NCBI GenBank assembly: GCA_965213685.1
Contig: CBDBZY010000003.1
Location: 64,001 to 128,000, forward strand
From: a bacterium
GTDB lineage: Bacteria > UBA8248
Direction: 5' to 3'
Length of the DNA stretch: 64,000 bases
Part shown: piece by piece, positions 53,823-63,589 of the stretch
Layout: every line of letters begins with the position of its first letter
Numbering within the stretch: position 1 is the first letter of the stretch
Made by a program: the position numbers and the translations under genes
Notes under the pieces: generated by a model
Told to the model about the DNA's origin: nothing
Seen by the model: the letters and a program-made list of their open reading frames with translations, nothing else
Databases searched by the model: none

Positions 53823-55216
53823 ATGAAAAAAAAAAGAACTCTGTATGACGGCGGCGCTGGTTTTTGTGGTGGGGGTTTTGTCTTTTGCGGCCAGCGGCTG
53901 GGCACAGGACGTCAAGGCCATGGCCAAGAACCTGGCGGATTTGAAGGTCGCGGCGGACACCGTCTGGGTGATGGTGGCCGGATTTTTGGTGTTCTGGATG
54001 CACGCGGGCTTTGCCATGCTCGAATCCGGGCTTTGCCGCGCGAAGAATACCGTCGCCATCCTCTACAAGAATTTTGGCGTTGTCGCCGTCTCCTCACTGG
54101 CGTTCTGGATGTTGGGCTTCGCCCTCATGTTCGGCGACGGCGGCCCCATCCTCGGGGCCAATGGTTTTTTGCTGTCGGGGGCGGACAACAGCCCGGCCAC
54201 GGACGACCTCTACAAGGGCGTTTTCTCCTCTCTAGGCTGGACGGGCGTGCCGCTATACGCGAAGTTTTTCTTTCAGCTCGTGTTCGCGGCGACGGCGGCG
54301 ACCATCGTCTCGGGGTGCGTGGCCGAGCGCATCAAGTTCTCCTCGTTCATGCTCTTCAGTTTTGTGCTCGTCGCCGTCATCTACCCCATCGGGGGCCATT
54401 GGATTTGGGGCGGCGGCTGGCTGGGCGGAATGGGCTTTCTCGACTTCGCCGGCTCGACCGTGGTCCACTCCGTGGGCGGCTGGGCGGGACTCGCCGGAAT
54501 CATCGTCCTCGGCCCCCGTCTCGGGAAATATGCACCTGACGGCCGGATGCAGCCGATGCCCGGCCACAACATGCCGCTCGTCACGCTGGGCGGGTTTGTC
54601 CTGTGGCTCGGATGGTTCGGCTTCAACCCGGGCAGCACGATGGCCGCCGACGCGGGGGCCATCGCGCGCATCGCCGTGACGACAAACCTCGCCGCCTCGG
54701 CGGGCGTCGTGGCTTCGAGCGTCACCTCGCGGGCGATGTTCGGCAAGGCGGACCTTTCCATGAGCGTGAACGGCGCGCTCGCCGGGCTGGTGGCCATCAC
54801 CGCCCCGTGCGCCAACGTCACCCCCGATGGGGGCGGTGCTCATCGGTCTGGCCGCGGGCGTCATCGTCTGCCTCTCGGTTCCGTTCCTCGACAAGATCAG
54901 GATAGACGATCCCGTTGGCGCCGTTTCGGTTCACCTGGTGTGCGGCGTCTTCGGCACGCTCGCACTCGGCTTGTTCGCCGCGCCATCCATCGACGAAGGC
55001 GTCGTCGGCCTGTTCTACGGCGGGGGCGCAGGCCTTCTCATCAAGCAGCTCACGGGCGTCGTAGCGGTCGGCGCGTTCGCCTTCGTCTCCTCCCTCATCC
55101 TTTGGCATGGCGTGCGGACCGTCATCGGCGTGCGCGTTTCCGCCGAGGAGGAATCGACCGGTCTCGACCTCTCGGAGCACGGGATGGAGGCCTACGCGGG
55201 GCAGAAGCTCGTGTAG
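53823..55216 (+). CDS. amtB: Ammonium transporter (apparent +1 insertions in A10 at 53826-53835 and C5 at 54821-54825)
   Basis: GFAMLESG..R.KN, FQLVFAA, DFAGSTVVH, WFGFNPGS, GLVAIT, IDDPVGAVSVH, GLDLSEHG. Confidence 0.95.
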
Positions 55217-55311
55217 CGCGGGGGATCGGGATCGGGAGAACGGGGGGCGCGTCGCGCGGATAGTAGATAGTAGCGGGTGGGATCGCCCGCCATTTCAGAG
55301 AGGAATGAACA

Positions 55312-55650
55312 ATGCGTTTGATCACGGCGATCATCAAGCCATTCAAGCTGGAAAGTGTGAAGGAGGCGCTGGGGGATGTCAGCGTGACGGGCATGACGGT
55401 GAGCGAGGTGAAGGGATTTGGCCGCCAGAAGGGCCACACCGAGCTGTATCGCGGCAGTGAGTACGTGGTCGATTTCTTGCCGAAAATCAAGGTGGAAATC
55501 CTCACGGAGGAAGCAAAGGTCGAAGCCATCGTCACGGCGGTGTGCAAGGCGGCGAACTCGGGCCAGATAGGAGACGGCAAGATATTCGTCCAGGAGTTGG
55601 AGGATTGCGTACGCATACGCACCGGGGAGAGGGGCGTTGACGCGATCTGA
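55312..55650 (+). CDS. glnK: Nitrogen regulatory protein P-II
   Basis: IIKPFKL, GFGRQKGHTELYRGSEY, GDGKIF, RIRTGE; linked to amtB. Confidence 0.95.
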   Translation: MRLITAIIKPFKLESVKEALGDVSVTGMTVSEVKGFGRQKGHTELYRGSEYVVDFLPKIKVEILTEEAKVEAIVTAVCKAANSGQIGDGKIFVQELEDCVRIRTGERGVDAI

Positions 55651-55720
55651 GCGACCGTCCCGCGCGGCGGGTCGGGGTTTGTCGCTTGCGGATGCAAGAA
55701 ATAACTAGGGTTTCCGCATG

Positions 55721-55756
55721 AAAAACCGGCCCTGCTTCAGGGGGCCGGTTTTTTTT
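55721..55756 (+). terminator. Rho-independent (possibly bidirectional) terminator after glnK
   Basis: AAAAACCGGCCC...GGGCCGGTTTTTTTT. Confidence 0.88.
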
Positions 55757-55965
55757 GCGCGCGCGTTCCCGTAAGAGGAGCATGATTCGAGGCGGCGAGG
55801 CCCTGGGGCGAATGCGCGTCAATCCGTGCCCGTCTCGGGCAAAATCCATGGACGCCCGGGATGCGGCGCGAGGTTCCGCGGGAGGTGCGCGGCGGGATTG
55901 CCTTTTCCCTGTCCTCCATGGGGGGCAGCCGGGATGATTGTTTCCATGCGGAGCGCCTCCTGAAA

Positions 55966-55981
55966 TTTAGACGTGTCTAAA
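55966..55981. promoter_or_regulatory. Palindromic operator, DtxR/MntR/SirR-like box
   Basis: TTTAGAC-GT-GTCTAAA with perfect 7-bp arms in an AT-rich patch, 18 bp upstream of a -35 box. Confidence 0.65.
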
Positions 55982-55999
55982 AATATATTGAAGAAGAGG

Positions 56000-56029
56000 T
56001 TGACTTTGTTTTTCATGCTCATCTAAAAT
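56000..56029 (+). promoter_or_regulatory. Putative sigma70 promoter of the cytochrome-PhnDCE operon
   Basis: TTGACT-N18-TAAAAT. Confidence 0.65.
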
Positions 56030-56071
56030 TTCCTGTCTGATGGGGCGTACAGGAGATGGAGCAATGGAAAC

Positions 56072-58042
56072 ATGAGACGGGGCGGCGACAAAAAACATCA
56101 TCCACGGGCGGGCGTTCGCCCCGTCGGGAGCAACCTTCCGGCGAGGCTGGTGCGCATCCTCGCCGCCGGCCTGCTCGCGACGGGTCTCGGCACGGCGTCG
56201 GCCCACGTCGTCCCTCCCGAGGAGTTGCACCCGGTTGCGGAAAGCTACCGCCGCGCCCATTTCATCCTGAACCTGAACCCGGTGCACTGGCCGCAGGTCT
56301 GGTCCGACATGGAGCGCGTCGGGCGCGCCCTCCGGGACGTGAATCCTCCCGCCGCCGGGCGGTTCTCCAGGGAGCTGGCCGCCGCGCGGCGCGCGGCCCA
56401 GCCCCGGCCGGGGAGGGATGGGGCACCGGACGCCGTCGCCGCGCGCGAGAGGGGCAGGCGCCTGGCGTTTTCCCTGGCGACCAGGGGCGTCTCCGCGCTG
56501 CTCGTCTCCCGCCTCGACCTGATCCGGCAAGGCGCCGTGCGCACCGGGGTGAAGCGGCACCTGAACGAGGCGCGAAGAATCTTTCGCGCCTTTGAGGAGA
56601 CCTTGCCGCATCTGGACCCGAAGGCGTGGCGGGAGATGCAAATCCGCTGGCTGGAGGCGAGTTCCCGCCTCGGGGCGGCCGGCGTGATGGGGCTGGGCGC
56701 AAGGCCCATGGACCTGCAAGAAATTCGCGCCAGCGTCTCTTTCATCCGCCGGTATTTCCACTCGAATTTCTCGGACTTTCGGGCCGGGAGAGAGCGTCGC
56801 CTGCTCCCGCGGCCCAAGGCGAGCGCGACCTACCTCCAAACGGCGCGGGTGCCGCTACGCCTGCCGCCCGGCTCCAACGTCAACAAGCAACTGCCGCGTC
56901 CCAGGCAAATTCTCGGAATGGCCGAGCGCGGGGCGAACGAGGCGGAGACTTTTCTCATCGCCCTGGGCGACATGGCCTTCGACAGCCCCGAGATATTCGG
57001 CGAGCCGGCGCGCAGCCTGGGGATCAGCTGCAACACCTGCCACAACAAGGGGGTGACGAATCCCGCGTTGTTCATCCCGGGCCTCTCCGGGGAGAAGGGC
57101 GGCGTGGACGTGTCGAACAGTTTTTTCGCCGGCCACGCGAACAACGGCTTGCATGATCCGCTGGACACGCCCGACCTGAGGGGAATCCGCTTCACGGCCC
57201 CCTACGGGAGGAACGGGCGCTTCGGCTCGCTCCGGGAATTCGTGCGCAACGTCATCGTGAACGAGTTCAACGGGCCGGAGCCCGATCCGATGCTCATGGA
57301 CGGCATGATCGCCTACATGAACGAGTTTGAATTCCTGCCGAACCCGAAGCTGCAAAAAAGCGGCAGGCTCCACCCCGGGCGGGTCTCCCGGGCGGCGTTG
57401 CGGGGCGAGCGGATATTCCACCGGAAATTCCCCGGGATGATGGGCGGCATGAGCTGCGCGGACTGCCACATCCCCCACGCGAATTTTCTGGACCACAGGC
57501 GCCACGACATCGGCTCTGCGGGCACGGGGCGGCAGCCCTTCCGCGCGGGGGGGCTGGACACGCCCACCCTGCTCTCCTCGCGCTTCACGGCGCCCTATTT
57601 CCACGATGGCAGCCTGCCCACCCTGCGGGCGGTGAGCGAATGGTTCAACGCCTCCTTCGGGCTGGGGCTGGGAGGGGGGGAGGTCGACGACCTCACCGCC
57701 TACCTCGAAGCGGTGGGGGATGGCGTGCAGGGGATGGAGGATACGATCTACACGCTGGAGTCCGAGTTGGAGGAGTTCCGCTTTTTCCTCTCCACCTACG
57801 AGCGCCTGAAGCGGAGAGGGAAAGGGGCGCTGATCGCCATCTTGCTGAAGACCGTGGTGCGCGAGGTGCAGGCCCACAAGTGGGACGTGCGGGAGAAGGG
57901 GAACCTGCCGATTCTCGACGCGATGGAGAATGCGCTGCGAGAGGCCCTGAGCGCGCATCTGGCGGGGGATGCGCGGCGGACCGACGAGAAAATCGCCGCC
58001 TACCAAGGGCTGTATGAGAAAAACAGGGAGAAACTGAAATGA
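56072..58042 (+). CDS. Secreted di-heme cytochrome c (bCcP/MauG superfamily-like) with extra helical N- and C-terminal domains
   Basis: Signal peptide ending TASA-H; CNTCH and CADCH; duplicated DTP.L...FTAPY motifs. Confidence 0.83.
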   Translation: MRRGGDKKHHPRAGVRPVGSNLPARLVRILAAGLLATGLGTASAHVVPPEELHPVAESYRRAHFILNLNPVHWPQVWSDMERVGRALRDVNPPAAGRFSRELAAARRAAQPRPGRDGAPDAVAARERGRRLAFSLATRGVSALLVSRLDLIRQGAVRTGVKRHLNEARRIFRAFEETLPHLDPKAWREMQIRWLEASSRLGAAGVMGLGARPMDLQEIRASVSFIRRYFHSNFSDFRAGRERRLLPRPKASATYLQTARVPLRLPPGSNVNKQLPRPRQILGMAERGANEAETFLIALGDMAFDSPEIFGEPARSLGISCNTCHNKGVTNPALFIPGLSGEKGGVDVSNSFFAGHANNGLHDPLDTPDLRGIRFTAPYGRNGRFGSLREFVRNVIVNEFNGPEPDPMLMDGMIAYMNEFEFLPNPKLQKSGRLHPGRVSRAALRGERIFHRKFPGMMGGMSCADCHIPHANFLDHRRHDIGSAGTGRQPFRAGGLDTPTLLSSRFTAPYFHDGSLPTLRAVSEWFNASFGLGLGGGEVDDLTAYLEAVGDGVQGMEDTIYTLESELEEFRFFLSTYERLKRRGKGALIAILLKTVVREVQAHKWDVREKGNLPILDAMENALREALSAHLAGDARRTDEKIAAYQGLYEKNREKLK

Positions 58043-58974
58043 GGCGCGCCGCGCGTTTTGCCCCAAGGCCGTTTTTCGGCGCAACCGACGCGGGGGCGCT
58101 GCTCCTCCTCGCCCTCTCCGCATTCCTGCTCGTTTTCGGGGCGCCCCATGCGGTCGGAACCGCCCATGCGGACGACGGGGAACTGCGGGTCGCGTTCGTT
58201 CCGCAGGAGAATCCCGAAAAGCTCATCGGCAGCGTGAAGCCCGCCATGGACTTCCTGGAAAGGGAAATGGGGCGGAAGATTCGTTATTTCATCACCCTGA
58301 ACTACTCGGCCGCCGTGGAGGCCATGATCGCGAAAAAGGCGGACGTCAGCTTCATGCCTCCCCTGCCCTACGTCCTGGCCCACAAGTATTCCGGGGTCGA
58401 GGCGGTTCTGGGCGAGGTATACGAGGGGAGGCCCTATTACCATTCCCGGATTTTCGTGCGCAAGGACAGCGGCATCAAGAAACTGTCCGACCTCAAGGGG
58501 AAGACCATCGCGTATGTGGACCCCATTTCGAGTTCCGGCTTCATGTATCCCCACGACGTTTTCGCGCGCGCCGGCCTGGTGAGGGGGGGGCTGGAGAAGC
58601 CGGAGGGCGGCTTTTTTCGGCGGGTGTATTTCGCGGGCGGGGATCAGCAGGCGATCGGTTCGGTCGTCGGCGGTTTCGTGGACGCCGCCGGCGTCAGCCA
58701 ATACGCCGTCAACCTTCTGCGCGGCGATCAGCGGGACAAGATTGCCGCCATCGCGCAGTCCGCCAGGATTCCCAGCCACAACGTGGTGGTGCGCAAAGGC
58801 TTGCACCCCGAGGTCAGGCAGAGGCTCGTTTCGGCGATGATGAAGATGAACCGGCCGGAGAATCGCGCGTTGCGGCGGGTTCTGTATGGGACGGACGGCT
58901 ACGTCCGGGTCGACCACAGCCACTATCAACCGGTGGCCGAGATGGCCCGGAAGTATGGTTTTCTGAGGGAATAG
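58039..58974 (+). CDS. PhnD/PtxB-like ABC transporter substrate-binding protein
   Basis: LRVAFVPQE, NYSAAVEAM, Y.SRIFVRKDSGI..L.DLKGK, DPISSSGF.YP, IPSH. Confidence 0.88.
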   Translation: MRRAARFAPRPFFGATDAGALLLLALSAFLLVFGAPHAVGTAHADDGELRVAFVPQENPEKLIGSVKPAMDFLEREMGRKIRYFITLNYSAAVEAMIAKKADVSFMPPLPYVLAHKYSGVEAVLGEVYEGRPYYHSRIFVRKDSGIKKLSDLKGKTIAYVDPISSSGFMYPHDVFARAGLVRGGLEKPEGGFFRRVYFAGGDQQAIGSVVGGFVDAAGVSQYAVNLLRGDQRDKIAAIAQSARIPSHNVVVRKGLHPEVRQRLVSAMMKMNRPENRALRRVLYGTDGYVRVDHSHYQPVAEMARKYGFLRE

Positions 58975-58978
58975 GGAC

Positions 58979-59824
58979 ATGGCGAAAGAAGCGGTCATCC
59001 ACATCGAAGACGCGCGGCTGGAGATGGGGGGGCGGACGATACTCTCCATCGACCGCTTCGACGTCTCCGGCGGAGAGCGGGTGGCCATCATCGGCAACAG
59101 CGGCTCCGGCAAGACGACCCTCATGCGGATGCTGAAGGGCTACGTGCCCTGTGCGGAGGGCAAGGTGGTCGTGATGGGGGACGCCTTTCCCATCAGGGAG
59201 ACGCAAAAGAGGAAAGCCCACCACCGGCACATCGGCATGATCCACCAGCACTTCGACCTGATAGGCCGCGAGACTGTCTGGCAGAACGTCTACCATGGGC
59301 GGCTGGGCTATGTGTCTTTGCTCAAAAGCGTTCTGGGAATCTGCTCCGAGCGCGACCTGCGAATCTGCGAGCAGGCCATTCACGAGGTGCGCCTCGACGA
59401 CAAGCGGCGCCGCTTTGCCCGCACCCTCTCCGGCGGGGAGCAGCAGCGCGTCGCCATCGCCCGGGCGTTGGCGCAGGAGCCGACGATCCTGCTCGCCGAC
59501 GAGCCCGTGTCGAGCCTGGACCCCGCGCTGGCCGAGGATATTCTCGACCTTATCGTATCGGTGTGCGACGCCTATGGGCTCACCCTCCTGATGAGCCTCC
59601 ACCTCCCGGAGCTGGCGCGAAAGTATGCGGACCGGATCGTCGCGATGCGAGGCGGAAAAATTATATGGGACGGTTCTGCGGATTCCCTCTCCAGTGATAA
59701 GATACGGGAAATATACGGGTTCATCGGAACGAACGGAGTCGCGCATGGGAGCGGAACGCGGGCGAGCCGAAGCGCTTTCACCTGGTCGTATGGCTACGAG
59801 AGCCAGCCTCTTCCTGGCGGTTAG
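58979..59824 (+). CDS. PhnC-like ABC ATP-binding protein
   Basis: GNSGSGKTT, NVYHGRLG, LSGGEQQRVAIARAL, LADEPVSSLDP, SLH. Confidence 0.9.
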   Translation: MAKEAVIHIEDARLEMGGRTILSIDRFDVSGGERVAIIGNSGSGKTTLMRMLKGYVPCAEGKVVVMGDAFPIRETQKRKAHHRHIGMIHQHFDLIGRETVWQNVYHGRLGYVSLLKSVLGICSERDLRICEQAIHEVRLDDKRRRFARTLSGGEQQRVAIARALAQEPTILLADEPVSSLDPALAEDILDLIVSVCDAYGLTLLMSLHLPELARKYADRIVAMRGGKIIWDGSADSLSSDKIREIYGFIGTNGVAHGSGTRASRSAFTWSYGYESQPLPGG

Positions 59825-60537
59825 CGCGCTCCTGTTCTGGTCGTTCCGGGGCTCCGAGTTTTCATTCCAGCAATTCTGGCGCGGTGCACCCCAGCTGTTT
59901 CACTTCTTCGGCCGGATGAGCCCGCCGGACTGGTCGGTCGGGGACGTGGTGCTGGCCTCGGCCGCCGAGACGCTGCAAACCACCGTCGCGGGCACCTTCC
60001 TGGGCGCCTTGTTCGCCTATCCGCTGGGCGTGCTCGCGGCGTCGAACTGGACGCCGGTCTGGGTGCATCTGCCCGTGAAGGCGTTCATGGCCTTTGTCCG
60101 CTCCATCCCCCTGCTGCTGCTCGCCCTGCTGTTCGTGTCCGCCGTGGGTCTGGGCCCCTTCCCCGGCGCCCTCGCTCTGGCGGTGCACTCCGTCGGCGTG
60201 CTCGGCCGGTTCGTGGCGGAGGAGATCGAGGCTACGGACCCGCGGCCCCTGCTCGCGCTGCAGGGGACGGGAGCGTCGTCCGTCCAGGTCATTCAGCATG
60301 GCCTCATCCCCCAGGTGCTGCCACAGATGGTCGCGCACCTGGCCATACGCTTCGAGATGAACCTGCGCGACTCCACGATTTTGGGCCTCGTCGGCGCGGG
60401 GGGGGCTGGGTTTTTACGTGTTCTTGTATGTGAAGCAGTTTCAATGGGAGAAGTCGGGCGTCCTCGTGCTGGCCATCATCGCGCTGGTTTTCGCGGGAGA
60501 GTTCGTCGCGTGGCAGGTCAGAAAACGCCTGATGTAG
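59745..60537 (+). CDS. PhnE-like ABC permease (apparent extra G in the run at 60398-60405)
   Basis: ETL, RSIP, AVGLGPFPG.LA, FEMNLR.STILGLVGAGG; corrected frame gives GAGGLGFY...VRKRLM*. Confidence 0.88.
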
Positions 60538-60620: not shown

Positions 60621-62302
60621 ATGGATACCCTGATTGGCCTGTTGGATGAAGCCAGGGCGAAATTTCCCGACGCGATCGCCTTGGAAGGCGATGTGGACGG
60701 GCGGGGACGGGTGACGCTCACGCGGGCGCAGCTCGCCGAGAGGGCGGCCGCCCTGGCCCGCGAACTGACGGATGCGGGGGTGAAGCCGGGCGACCTCGTC
60801 GCCCTGCTGGGGCCGAATCAACCGGAATGGGCGGTGGGTTATTTCGGGGCGCTGCTCGCCGGGGGCGTCCTCGTGCCGCTGGACGTGAGCCTGAAGGAGG
60901 GGGAACTCGCGAACATTCTGGCGAAGGCGCAGCCCGTTTGCCTCGTGGCGGACGCCCGGGAGCGGGAGCGGGCCCGCGCGCTGGCGCGGGACGTGTCGCC
61001 CGCCTGCCGGGTGCTGCGCTTCGATGAGGGGCGGGGCGGGGCCGGCGTAGCGCCGCCGCTGGACGCTCTGCCGGGCGCCCGGCGCGGGCCGGACGATCTC
61101 GCGCTGATATCGTTCTCGTCCGGAACGACGGGAGCGCCCAAGGGGGTGATGCTCTCTCACGGGAACATCGCGTCCAACGTGCGCGCCGTGCTCGGGCCAT
61201 TCCAGGCCGGGGCGGACGACGTCTTCCTCTCGATTCTGCCCCTTCACCACATGTTCGAGAGCACGGGCGGCCTCCTGATACCGCTGATGGCCGGCGCGAG
61301 GGTGCATTACCTCTCCTCCCTGAACCCGCGCCTCATCGCGGACGCCATGCAAAACGAGGGGGTCACCATCTGCCTGATGGTGCCGGCACTCGCGCGCCTC
61401 ATCCACAAGCGCATCATGTCGACCGTGGAGTCGCTGAGGGGGGCGAGGAAGATCATTTTCAGCGCCCTGTTCGGCCTCTCCGGCGTCTGCCTGTCCCTGG
61501 GCTGGCGCGTCGGCCGGTTTCTGTTTCCCCCGGGTGAGAAAAAACCTGGGGGAGAATTTGCGCTACTTCGCGAGCGGCGGCGCCGCCCTCGACCCGATGG
61601 TCGCTCGGGATTTGCTCGTTCTGGGAGTCGAGGTGATTCAGGGATACGGGTTGACGGAAACGTCGCCCATCACCCATGCGAATCCGCCGGGAGCGCCCAA
61701 CAGAATCGGAACCGTGGGCCCGCCGATTCCAGGGGTGGAGGCGCGCATCGAGCCTGTGGAGGGTGCGGATGCGGGCGAGGGGGAAATCCTGATACGCGGG
61801 CCGAACGTGATGCAGGGCTATTTCGGGAGCCCGGCGATGACGGCGGAAGTCCTGCGGGACGGCTGGTTTCATACCGGAGACATCGGCCGCGAGGACGCCG
61901 AGGGCTACCTCACGATATGCGGCCGCTCCAAGAACGTCATCGTCTCGGAATCGGGGAAAAACATCTACCCCGAAGAGGTGGAGGAGCACCTCCTGAAGAG
62001 CGAACTGTTTCAGGAGGTGTGCGTGCTCGGCAAGAAAACGCCGCACGGCGGGGAGGAGGCGTTCGCCGTCGTCGTGCTCGACCCGGAGGCCGACTTGCCG
62101 GAAGACGACAAGGCGCGCGCAGCCCGGGCCGAAGCCGAGCTGAGGCGCTGGAGTGCCCAGCTGGCGGATTACAAGAGGGCCGCCGGCTTTTTTTCTGTGG
62201 CCCGGTGAGGAGCTGCCCAGAACCACGACGCGAAAGCACAAGCGCGAGGACATCAAGGCGACCTTGCGGGAGCGGCCAGAGTTTTCCGCGAGTGATTTCT
62301 GA
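60621..62302 (+). CDS. Long-chain fatty acid-CoA ligase (AMP-binding); apparent frameshifts at C5 61527-61531 and T7 62188-62194
   Basis: FSSGTTGAPKGVMLSH, LPLHH, SGGA, QGYGLTETSP, GWFHTGD, GKNIYPEEVE, LPRTTTRK. Confidence 0.88.
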
Positions 62303-62376
62303 CCCCCCCTCGGGCGGGGGGAGATGTGTTGTCTCGTCCGCGCCGGCGGATGGACGAAATCAATGGAGGGGATCCG

Positions 62377-63589
62377 ATGGATATGTCCCAGGCGATACGG
62401 GACGCCTCCCAGGCGCTCCGGCCCTGGCTCTCCGAGGCGAGGCGCGGGATGCACATGAACCCCGAACTCGGCTACGAGGAGCGCGAGACGGCGCGGCGCG
62501 TCGCGGAGACGCTCCGGGGGCTGGGCCTCCGGGTGGACGCCGGCGTCGCGGAGACGGGGGTGGTCGGCCTCCTCGAGACCGGACGCCCGGGCCCCACCAT
62601 CGGCATCCGCGCCGACATGGACGCCCTCCCCATCGAGGAGTCCAACGACGTGCCCTACAGGAGCCGGCGCCCGGGGAAGATGCACGCCTGCGGCCATGAC
62701 GCCCACGTGAGCATGCTGCTGGGCGCGGCGCGCCTCCTCGCCGAGAACGAAGCGTGGGCTCGACGGCCTGGACGGCAACGTCAAATTCATCTTTCAGCCC
62801 GCCGAGGAGGGGAAGGCCGGCGGCAAGCGGATGGTGGAGGAGGGGATTCTGGAAGCCCCCCGGGTGGATATGCTCATTGCCGCCCACGTCTGGCCGGACA
62901 TGCCGGCGGGCCGCATCAGCACGCGCCCGGGGCCCGTGCTGGCGGCGTCGGACAAACTCCTCTTCCGCGTCTGCGGGCAGAGTGCTCACGCGGCGTATCC
63001 CCATCAGTCCAGAGACGCCCTGGTGGCCGCCTCGCACCTTGTGGCCGCACTCCAATCCGTCGTGAGCAGAAACGTCGGCCCGTTCGAGGCCGCCGTTTTG
63101 TCCGTCACGGGGTTCGAGTCCGGCGTCGCGATCAACGTCGTGCCACGGGAGGCCAGGCTGCAGGGAACCATCCGCACGCACGATCCGAGCGTCCGGGAGA
63201 GGATGAAGGAGCGCGTGCGGGCGGTGGCGCGCGGGGTGGCGGAGGCGTTCGGCGTCCGGATCGACCTCGAGGTCACGCCCGGCTATCCCGCCCTGGTGAA
63301 CCACGAGGCGGCCGTCGCGCTGGTGGAAAGCGCCGGTGCGCAGGTTCTCGGGGCGGAGAGCGTGGGCGAGATGCCGCTTTCGATGGGGGCTGAGGATTTC
63401 GCCTACATGGCGGCGCAGCGGCCCGGCGCCTTGTTCCGCGTGGGCGTGCGGAACGAGGAGAGGGGCATTGTGCACGGGCTACACTCGGACCGATTCGACC
63501 TGGACGAGGACGCGCTGCCGGTAGGCGTCTGTGTCTTCGCCCAGGCGGCGGTGGAGTTCCTGGGAAATCCGGAAAAGTATCTCGCATAG
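62377..63589 (+). CDS. M20D family amidohydrolase (apparent frameshift near 62757)
   Basis: HMNPELGYEE, RADMDALPI, MHACGHDAH, FQPAEE, EDF, LHSDRFDLDE. Confidence 0.9.

Follow-up and report, generated by a model that had tools for sequence, protein, structure and literature searches.

Gene organization and conservation of the cassette

A 64,000-nucleotide stretch of contig CBDBZY010000003.1 from a UBA8248 bacterium (assembly GCA_965213685.1, contig positions 64,001 to 128,000; hereafter the window) possesses a unit of four genes on its plus strand. The first gene encodes an atypical di-heme cytochrome, and it is followed by genes for a binding protein, an ATPase and a permease which resemble PhnD, PhnC and PhnE of the phosphonate-type ATP-binding cassette (ABC) transporters. 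The unit is probably a manganese uptake module. A first-pass annotation of this DNA had described the four genes as tightly coupled and placed a promoter and a perfect palindrome before them; on re-reading, its coordinates and motifs were found to be correct and both upstream elements are present at the given place (Table 1). The cytochrome and PhnD-like genes share an ATGA at 58039-58042, read directly from the letters, and the PhnD-like and PhnC-like genes are separated by a 4-bp gap (58975-58978). The PhnE-like frame is open from 59625, with a likely start at 59745, where GGAG lies about 8 nt upstream, or at 59790.

To follow the distribution of the cassette, 79 genome loci were collected from a scan of one genome per species, among which 16 with at least 70% identity are referred to as close loci. 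The taxon labels of the 79 loci are Nitrospinota, Planctomycetota, Acidobacteriota, Hydrogenedentota, Sumerlaeota, Verrucomicrobia/Opitutales, Oligoflexia and Lentisphaeria. Conserved synteny had been named in the first-pass annotation as a check, and the order cytochrome-phnD-phnC-phnE was found collinear on one strand in 71 of the 79 loci, which represent at least eight phyla; of the eight exceptions, seven are truncated by a contig end. The same gene order was observed in six further metagenome loci, and the cytochrome gene is present in 22/22 other genomes of the same genus. L032, which is among the 71 collinear loci, has its cytochrome and binding-protein genes 1.5 kb apart. The core domain, going by its Pfam name, would suit a peroxide-detoxifying cytochrome c peroxidase (CCP) which merely shares an operon with a transporter, with no joint function. 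This explanation is highly improbable in view of the gene order kept across these phyla and of two family-specific extra domains in the cytochrome, one of which is predicted to dock on the binding protein.

Clustering of the open reading frames (ORFs) which flank the cassette in the more distant loci revealed two recurrent families, the DtxR family of metal regulators and an outer-membrane barrel of family PF13557. The PF13557-like barrel adjoins the cassette in 18 loci, and four of four tested barrels matched the family. The ORF tested from L027 proved to be an OprB porin, and it belongs to a cluster of flanking ORFs from three Opitutales loci (L027, L031, L033).

Table 1. Features of the cassette and its upstream region, in positions of the window.
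Feature	Position	Strand	Length	Remarks
Hairpin and T-run after glnK	55722..55757	+		Upstream boundary of the unit; sequence read
Weaker promoter-like CTGAAA-N18-TATATT	55960..55989	+		9/12 positions, pattern match only; spacer holds the palindrome
Palindrome TTTAGAC-GT-GTCTAAA	55966..55981	.		Perfect, 7+7; candidate MntR-type operator
Promoter-like TTGACT-N18-TAAAAT	56000..56029	+		10/12 positions match
Cytochrome ORF	56072-58042	+	656 aa	ORF list
PhnD-like binding protein ORF	58039-58974	+	311 aa	ORF list
PhnC-like ABC ATPase ORF	58979-59824	+	281 aa	ORF list
PhnE-like permease ORF	59745..60537	+		Frame broken within the window by an extra G

Binding protein, cytochrome and their predicted complex

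The binding protein matched PF12974 with 199.2 bits against a cut-off of 27, and in the Pfam scan no other family besides NMT1 was matched, PF01297 of the ZnuA/PsaA proteins (cluster A-I) included. The subfamily model TIGR01098 was reached (185.5 vs 112.05), while the score for the PhnD equivalog TIGR03431 stayed under its cut-off (175.3 vs 261.1 bits). The best solved relatives are PtxB (1.9e-29), followed by ArrX, Te_PtxB, HtxB, AioX and PhnD. Phosphite binders of the PtxB type show a conserved STS-H motif, two tyrosines on the phosphite oxygens and a capping tyrosine (PMC5700983, in part). The pocket residues were mapped through alignments to the solved relatives and compared in 73 cassette binding proteins. 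In 73/73 proteins the histidine of the STS-H motif is replaced by aspartic acid (D202) and the capping tyrosine by histidine (H247), and both oxygen-binding tyrosines, Y89 and Y134, are equally invariant. The last serine, S166, is kept in all 73 and the full Ser-Ser-Ser in 59. The other 14 show Asp-Met-Ser at residues 164-166 together with co-varying changes elsewhere, for example at L125, W139 and S244, and this subgroup may be a second specificity class. Judged by the alignments, the pocket is a rebuilt one, in which the anion-binding histidine gave way to a carboxylate with a new histidine opposite, so that a Tyr/Tyr/Asp/His set stands next to an anion site that is kept in part. Such a pocket may take an oxyanion, either by itself or along with a metal. 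Transferrin and FbpA hold a trivalent metal together with a synergistic anion, and the Tyr/Tyr/Asp/His set would resemble their ligand sets.

The match to PF12974, the TIGR01098 score, the ranking of PtxB, ArrX, HtxB and AioX among the solved relatives and the retention of the serine motif and two tyrosines would also suit an ordinary importer of reduced phosphorus or another oxyanion (phosphite, phosphonate, arsenite or selenite) in which the anion would be oxidised by the cytochrome. We regard this as very unlikely. Both pocket substitutions are without exception in the family, and the equivalog models were not reached for PhnD, as given above, or for PhnC, the ATPase scoring 228.4 bits against the TIGR02315 cut-off of 266.1. 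The cassette is also accompanied by metal regulators and MntR-box-like sites, described below. A carbon-phosphorus (C-P) lyase, which the first-pass annotation had not seen near the operon, was not found more widely either, as PhnJ (PF06007) gave no match anywhere in the 94%-complete assembly, other phosphonatases and ptxD not having been searched for. The only strong PF12974 match in the assembly is the gene of the cassette itself. The assembly looks mixed, with 49 contigs (3.07 Mb) of about 65% GC like the window and 22 contigs (4.9 Mb) of 43-54% GC, and genomes of the same genus measure 2.9-4.6 Mb; genome-wide absences are to be read in this light.

The cytochrome is composed of a signal peptide (about residues 1-44), a family-specific helical N-terminal domain (about residues 45-262), a heme core and a C-terminal four-helix bundle (residues 556-656). 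The heme motifs CNTCH (residues 320-324, nt 57029-57043) and CADCH (residues 462-466, nt 57455-57469) are invariant in 24/24 cytochrome sequences. The mature N-terminus carries a His-x-x-Pro-Pro-Glu-x-x-His-Pro motif which is at least 90% conserved, and invariant acidic, histidine and tryptophan residues are found in both the N-terminal domain and the C-terminal bundle. The core matched PF03150 with 42.8 bits against a gathering cut-off of 25.6, over profile positions 7-76 of 149 only. The models for MauG (TIGR03791, 29.3 vs 443.85) and MbnH (TIGR04039, 41.2 vs 362.85) were scored far under their cut-offs, as was a hydrazine-synthase model.

The model of the full-length cytochrome had a predicted local distance difference test score (pLDDT) of 68.7, and Foldseek with the low-confidence core gave hydrazine synthase gamma and bacterial CCP (BccP) as best matches (E 0.015-0.03, probability 0.99-1.0, template modelling score TMt 0.35-0.44). 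The core as a whole shows weak matches to di-heme peroxidases, MauG and hydrazine synthase gamma. When folded by itself, the N-terminal domain reached a pLDDT of 94.8, and no solved fold stood out for it, Foldseek giving nothing at E<=0.001 and VIA-align a best Z of 7.9, to unrelated vinculin-like helical proteins. EfeM (7q1g, probability 0.54, E 0.67) and EfeO are among its Foldseek rows of best probability, at a level which is not significant. A likeness of this domain to streptococcal metal-binding lipoproteins in a PDB profile search (E 0.07-0.085) was at chance level and was set aside. Matches of the C-terminal bundle to cytochrome b562 fusion partners and other four-helix bundles (Z about 12-13) were likewise discarded, the range being common for helical bundles.

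Relatives of the cytochrome are numerous. Among 8000 candidates scored, 802 were related at E<=0.001, and the 120 listed relatives, 614-674 aa long, share at least 50% identity with the query along at least 93% of its length. When 1.84 billion cluster representatives were searched, 1757 matches were obtained, some of them shorter and made of the heme core only. One such short form (L098:2859-4067, residues 264-553 matched) lies in a contig of 5998 nt in which no PhnD-, PhnC- or PhnE-like gene was found. If this pattern is general, the N-terminal domain would be an adaptor for the binding protein. A comparison of short forms with missing binding proteins was dropped, as the metagenome scan gave six long-form cassettes and one true short form, which is too few.

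A complex of the mature forms of the cytochrome and the binding protein, predicted together with two hemes and one Mn, scored 0.80 in three runs, and the best of three controls scored 0.00. The mark of 0.80 was reached by 116 of 157 solved complexes and two of 215 mismatched pairs, counts which calibrate the present score only roughly, own alignments and small molecules having been used. The runs agree in at least 86% of contacts, with a partner pLDDT of at least 86. In the model, the interface is formed by cytochrome residues 46-50, 187-211 and 600-609 and by residues 87-90, 161-163 and 196-204 of the binding protein, segments at the edge of the ligand cleft that contain Y89, D161 and D202. 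The N-terminal domain of the cytochrome is thereby predicted to dock onto the cleft of the binding protein. A direct functional link between the two proteins is suggested by this predicted complex and by nothing else in the analysis. No solved complex of this kind is known to us.

The same complex could be read in terms of a maturase similar to MauG or MbnH, in which the cytochrome would oxidise a tyrosine, tryptophan or histidine of the binding protein to create the ligand site and would not act on the solute. In MauG, a surface tryptophan relays oxidising equivalents to the partner protein; the invariant W193 and W604 of the cytochrome lie in or beside the predicted interface, the score stands well apart from the controls, and the CCP/MauG homology is weak but real. 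A maturase is nevertheless quite unlikely. The MauG and MbnH models are far from reached, the strict 1:1 coupling in an operon, as observed in 71/79 loci, would be unnecessary for a one-off maturase, and the sequence points to no modified residue.

The PhnE-like permease scored 225.1 bits with TIGR01097, over the cut-off of 216.7 even in its broken frame, and the match ends at profile position 215 of 252. The missing tail was found in the next frame and ends at 60537, so that the end coordinate of the first-pass annotation is the real phnE stop. The shift falls in a run of eight G (60398-60405). Locus L009 has seven G at this run, and the PhnE tails of L009, L012, L014 and L026 are in frame throughout. 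Contigs from four of four public runs also show one G fewer; the four runs come from one study, three being identical over 801 bases and possibly the source of this DNA, and the fourth differing at 10 bases. Since the relatives are in frame and all four public-run contigs have one G fewer, the frameshift is read as an assembly error and the operon as intact. More homopolymer errors of this kind are likely in the neighbouring ORFs. Partial Pfam coverage was seen in the ORFs 53845-55263 (Ammonium_transp, positions 1-274 of 399), 60621-62699 (AMP-binding, 2-272 of 384) and 62831-63589 (Peptidase_M20, from position 79), and the orthologue of the AMP-binding gene in L001 has 558 aa and covers the whole profile. 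Most close loci (L001-L020) have ORFs of 463-482 aa and 112 aa upstream, in the places of amtB and glnK in the window, and an ORF of 558 aa downstream, of which that of L001 alone was Pfam-tested (AMP-binding).

Candidate operator and adjacent metal regulators

The pattern TTTAG-N6-CTAAA was found once in the 3.07 Mb of high-GC contigs, at 55966, and only two more sites occur there with at most one mismatch. Five single-contig genomes of the same genus have a single copy each, in every case before the cytochrome operon, compared with 1-16 occurrences of a reversed control pattern. TTAG-N6-CTAA stands at the same distance from the cytochrome gene in 15/16 close loci and with one mismatch in the remaining one (L003), so the palindrome recurs before homologs as the first-pass annotation had proposed to check. 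Across the 71 complete loci, the 24,873 nt directly upstream of the cytochrome gene contain 26 copies of the core TAG-N6-CTA, compared with 27 copies in all the remaining 900,582 nt, an enrichment of about 35-fold in the cassette promoter windows. Several sites outside these windows immediately precede the adjacent regulator gene or barrel gene, and 7 of 24 regulator-bearing loci have the core directly before the regulator or cytochrome gene. Among the sites with this core are GTAGC-N4-GCTAC in the two-domain MntR group (L021, L030) and TGTAGCCTAGGCTACA in Sumerlaeota loci, which share the architecture of the enterobacterial MntR box.

The enterobacterial MntR box has the consensus AACATAGCnnnnGCTATGTT with TAG-N6-CTA spacing (PMC1698941, in part), and the palindrome has the same spacing as the E. 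coli box. It is a candidate operator of the cassette with MntR-box architecture. The first-pass annotation had taken it for an operator of the DtxR-family type, of which the likeness to the MntR box stands and a likeness to the DtxR/IdeR box, which is 19 bp long, does not. The promoter scan of the region gave two promoter-like sites against 0.1 expected from shuffles, and TTGACT and ATAAAAT are aligned in most close relatives. The GGGCCGGTTTTTT element of the glnK-terminator hairpin is also aligned in close relatives; a terminator-like site was listed there on the minus strand by the pattern scan. An Rfam scan of 55600-56200 showed nothing over gathering score and no manganese riboswitch, its hits lying on the glnK terminator.

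In 24/79 loci a DtxR-family gene is located no more than 2 kb from the cassette, and often it is either the leading gene on that strand or divergently oriented. All four adjacent regulators tested carry PF01325 and PF02742, and two of them also a FeoA domain. In locus L033 the cassette is flanked by a DtxR-family gene on either side. In the B. subtilis MntR, the manganese site is formed by Asp8, Glu99, Glu102 and His103, and in the C. diphtheriae DtxR the iron site is formed by Met10, Cys102, Glu105 and His106 (PMC4805248, in part). Among 25 adjacent regulators, the position of Glu99/Cys102 is occupied by glutamic acid in 22 and by cysteine in three (L038, L039, L052), and the position of Asp8/Met10 by aspartic acid in 16, asparagine in six, glutamine in three and methionine in none. 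In L052 the gene of this Cys-type regulator comes directly after that of the cytochrome, with 757 nt more to the end of the contig. The L027 regulator had E. coli MntR as best solved match (2h09, 7.9e-36) and keeps Asp8, Glu11, Glu99, Glu102 and His103 of the B. subtilis protein.

The presence of a DtxR-family gene in the genome, another check named in the first-pass annotation, turned out to be positive, two such genes being found on contigs C34 and C36; as 12 of 14 control genomes have one, presence is not discriminating, and the adjacency in 24 loci of other phyla is the stronger evidence. The C34 protein possesses the Mn-type residues, aspartic acid and Glu-x-x-Glu-His, and its best solved match is the Deinococcus manganese sensor DR2539 (8pvt, 7e-39), followed by the manganese sensors SloR and ScaR. 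The C36 paralogue (C36:22665-26256, L081) has histidine and cysteine at the two diagnostic positions and lies just before ORFs whose N-termini look by eye like an iron(III)-type ABC permease. Of the generic Mn/Fe regulation in the first-pass annotation, the DtxR-family part is retained, and the regulator residues point to manganese over a generic signal.

Iron would be the metal if the cassette followed the logic of EfeUOB, with the cytochrome oxidising periplasmic Fe2+ and the Tyr/Tyr/Asp/His protein taking up Fe3+, perhaps with a synergistic anion on the serine motif. The putative likeness of the invariant Y89, Y134, D202 and H247 to the transferrin/FbpA set, the three Cys-type regulators and the EfeM and EfeO rows of the N-terminal domain speak for this version, which we consider unlikely. 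The Mn-type glutamic acid in 22/25 regulators, the lack of methionine in any and the manganese sensors as closest solved relatives argue against it, as does the Cys-type paralogue being placed elsewhere, on C36. The EfeM match, moreover, lacks significance, and all VIA-align Z values stayed below 8.

Proposed function and relation to known systems

The suggestion of the first-pass annotation that a phosphonate-type scaffold was repurposed for a metal is supported, the synteny, palindrome and regulator comparisons all being favourable. On balance we favour, with moderate confidence, an MntR-controlled manganese uptake module built on a PhnDCE scaffold, in which the cytochrome, docked on the binding protein, would either load it with the metal or alter the metal's redox state. 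When the metal is sufficient, the regulator, for which the Mn-type protein on C34 is the candidate in the genome of the window, would bind the TTTAG-N6-CTAAA palindrome and shut the operon off, repression being preferred here to activation. The secreted cytochrome would dock through its helical N-terminal domain and mature N-terminus onto the cleft of the PhnD-fold protein, which may offer a hard-ligand Tyr/Tyr/Asp/His site beside the retained serine motif. The cytochrome would change the redox state of the metal or load it onto the binding protein, whose cargo would then be imported by the PhnC/PhnE-type ABC transporter. In other phyla, an outer-membrane channel (PF13557 or OprB) may also be part of the module.

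A more specific version is a redox-gated route resembling a bacterial transferrin. Here the cytochrome would oxidise Mn(II) to Mn(III), or trap environmental Mn(III), and hand it over through its N-terminal His-x4-Glu-x2-His peptide to the Tyr/Tyr/Asp/His protein, with import by the PhnCE-type transporter. We put this forward tentatively, as a speculative possibility. If true, this would make it the first importer dedicated to Mn(III), with a wide distribution among marine Nitrospinota, Planctomycetota, Acidobacteriota and other groups.

Genome content is in keeping with a manganese role of the module. Nramp was found neither in the five complete same-genus genomes (0/5) nor in the assembly of the window. 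These five genomes have one or two ZnuA-family genes each, and the single PF01297 protein of the assembly lies away from the cassette (C12:56943-60285, L083). It has a His/Asp/Glu-rich loop of about 60 residues, and its gene is divergent from a Fur-family gene and ZnuC/ZnuB-like genes; from these features it is read as a probable Zur-controlled zinc system. The intergenic region is AT-rich and contains TGTAATGTTATAATATAACG. The cassette is left as the only candidate found for a dedicated manganese importer in the genome, a weak argument because Nramp is also absent from 6 of 14 control genomes.

This absence being common is one of several observations that weigh against a repressed manganese importer. 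The palindrome is positioned upstream of the best -35 match, a placement suiting an activator, and only the weaker promoter match has it in the spacer. TAG-N6-CTA was not seen near the cassette in 17/24 regulator-bearing loci, so other operators must exist there. No regulator adjoins the cassette in the clade of the window (0/16 close loci), so that the C34 protein is linked to it by analogy, chiefly with L014. Three of 25 regulators have the iron-like cysteine. In the pocket, S166 (73/73), the full serine motif (59/73) and both oxyanion-binding tyrosines are retained, and the best solved relatives bind phosphite or arsenate. The heme core was poorly folded in the model (pLDDT <50 over residues 323-384 and 471-516), because of which the chemistry of the cytochrome is not readable from it.

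The transporter genes of the cassette share folds and order with the PtxABC and PhnCDE importers, including the matches to PF12974, the PhnE equivalog and TIGR01098. The cassette differs from them in the Asp/His switch of the pocket, in the PhnD and PhnC scores under cut-off and in the lack of C-P lyase, and also in the di-heme cytochrome gene, which is always first, and in the metal regulators nearby. With MntH and with MntABC, PsaBCA and SitABCD it has in common an MntR-type regulator and an MntR-box-like palindrome, and with the latter three the form of an ABC importer with a periplasmic binding protein. In contrast to these MntR-repressed importers, the binding protein has the PhnD fold and not the ZnuA/PsaA fold, and a cytochrome is the partner. 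The part of a 2022 review of bacterial manganese homeostasis that was consulted lists NRAMP, PsaBCA-type ABC, ZIP, outer-membrane porins and uptake linked to type VI secretion, and no PhnD-type system (PMC9334652).

In its working mode, the cassette would resemble EfeUOB, with a periplasmic heme enzyme, a metal-binding protein and a membrane importer. It differs by having no EfeU, EfeO or DyP homologue, a c-type di-heme protein and an ABC importer, and by an EfeM match that is not significant. The MauG-preMADH and MbnH-MbnP pairs are similar in the CCP/MauG core and in the predicted docking on an adjacently encoded periplasmic partner. They differ in that the cassette cytochrome scores far under the family cut-offs, the partner is an ABC binding protein and docking is predicted through an extra helical domain, which MauG and MbnH are not known to have. 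The first-pass annotation knew of no described system with this composition, and in literature searches, with subscription journals outside their coverage, no description was found of a cassette pairing phnD or a phosphonate ABC transporter with MntR, DtxR, manganese or cytochrome c peroxidase. A phosphate-linked TonB cluster in acidophiles, as far as the consulted part of its source describes it, is different from the cassette (PMC2631029).

A pairing of an ABC binding protein with a c-type di-heme enzyme that carries two new domains and is predicted to dock on it would be new. The His-to-Asp and Tyr-to-His switch of the pocket is directly testable with purified proteins. If the proposed function is true, it names a metal importer for lineages without MntH and Mn-type ZnuA-family systems. 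Because the cassette looks like a manganese-regulated metal uptake system, its phnD genes are probably no sign of phosphonate use, and the finding would warn that, in marine and symbiont genomes, phnD, phnC and phnE of this clade should not be taken to indicate the use of phosphonate or phosphite.

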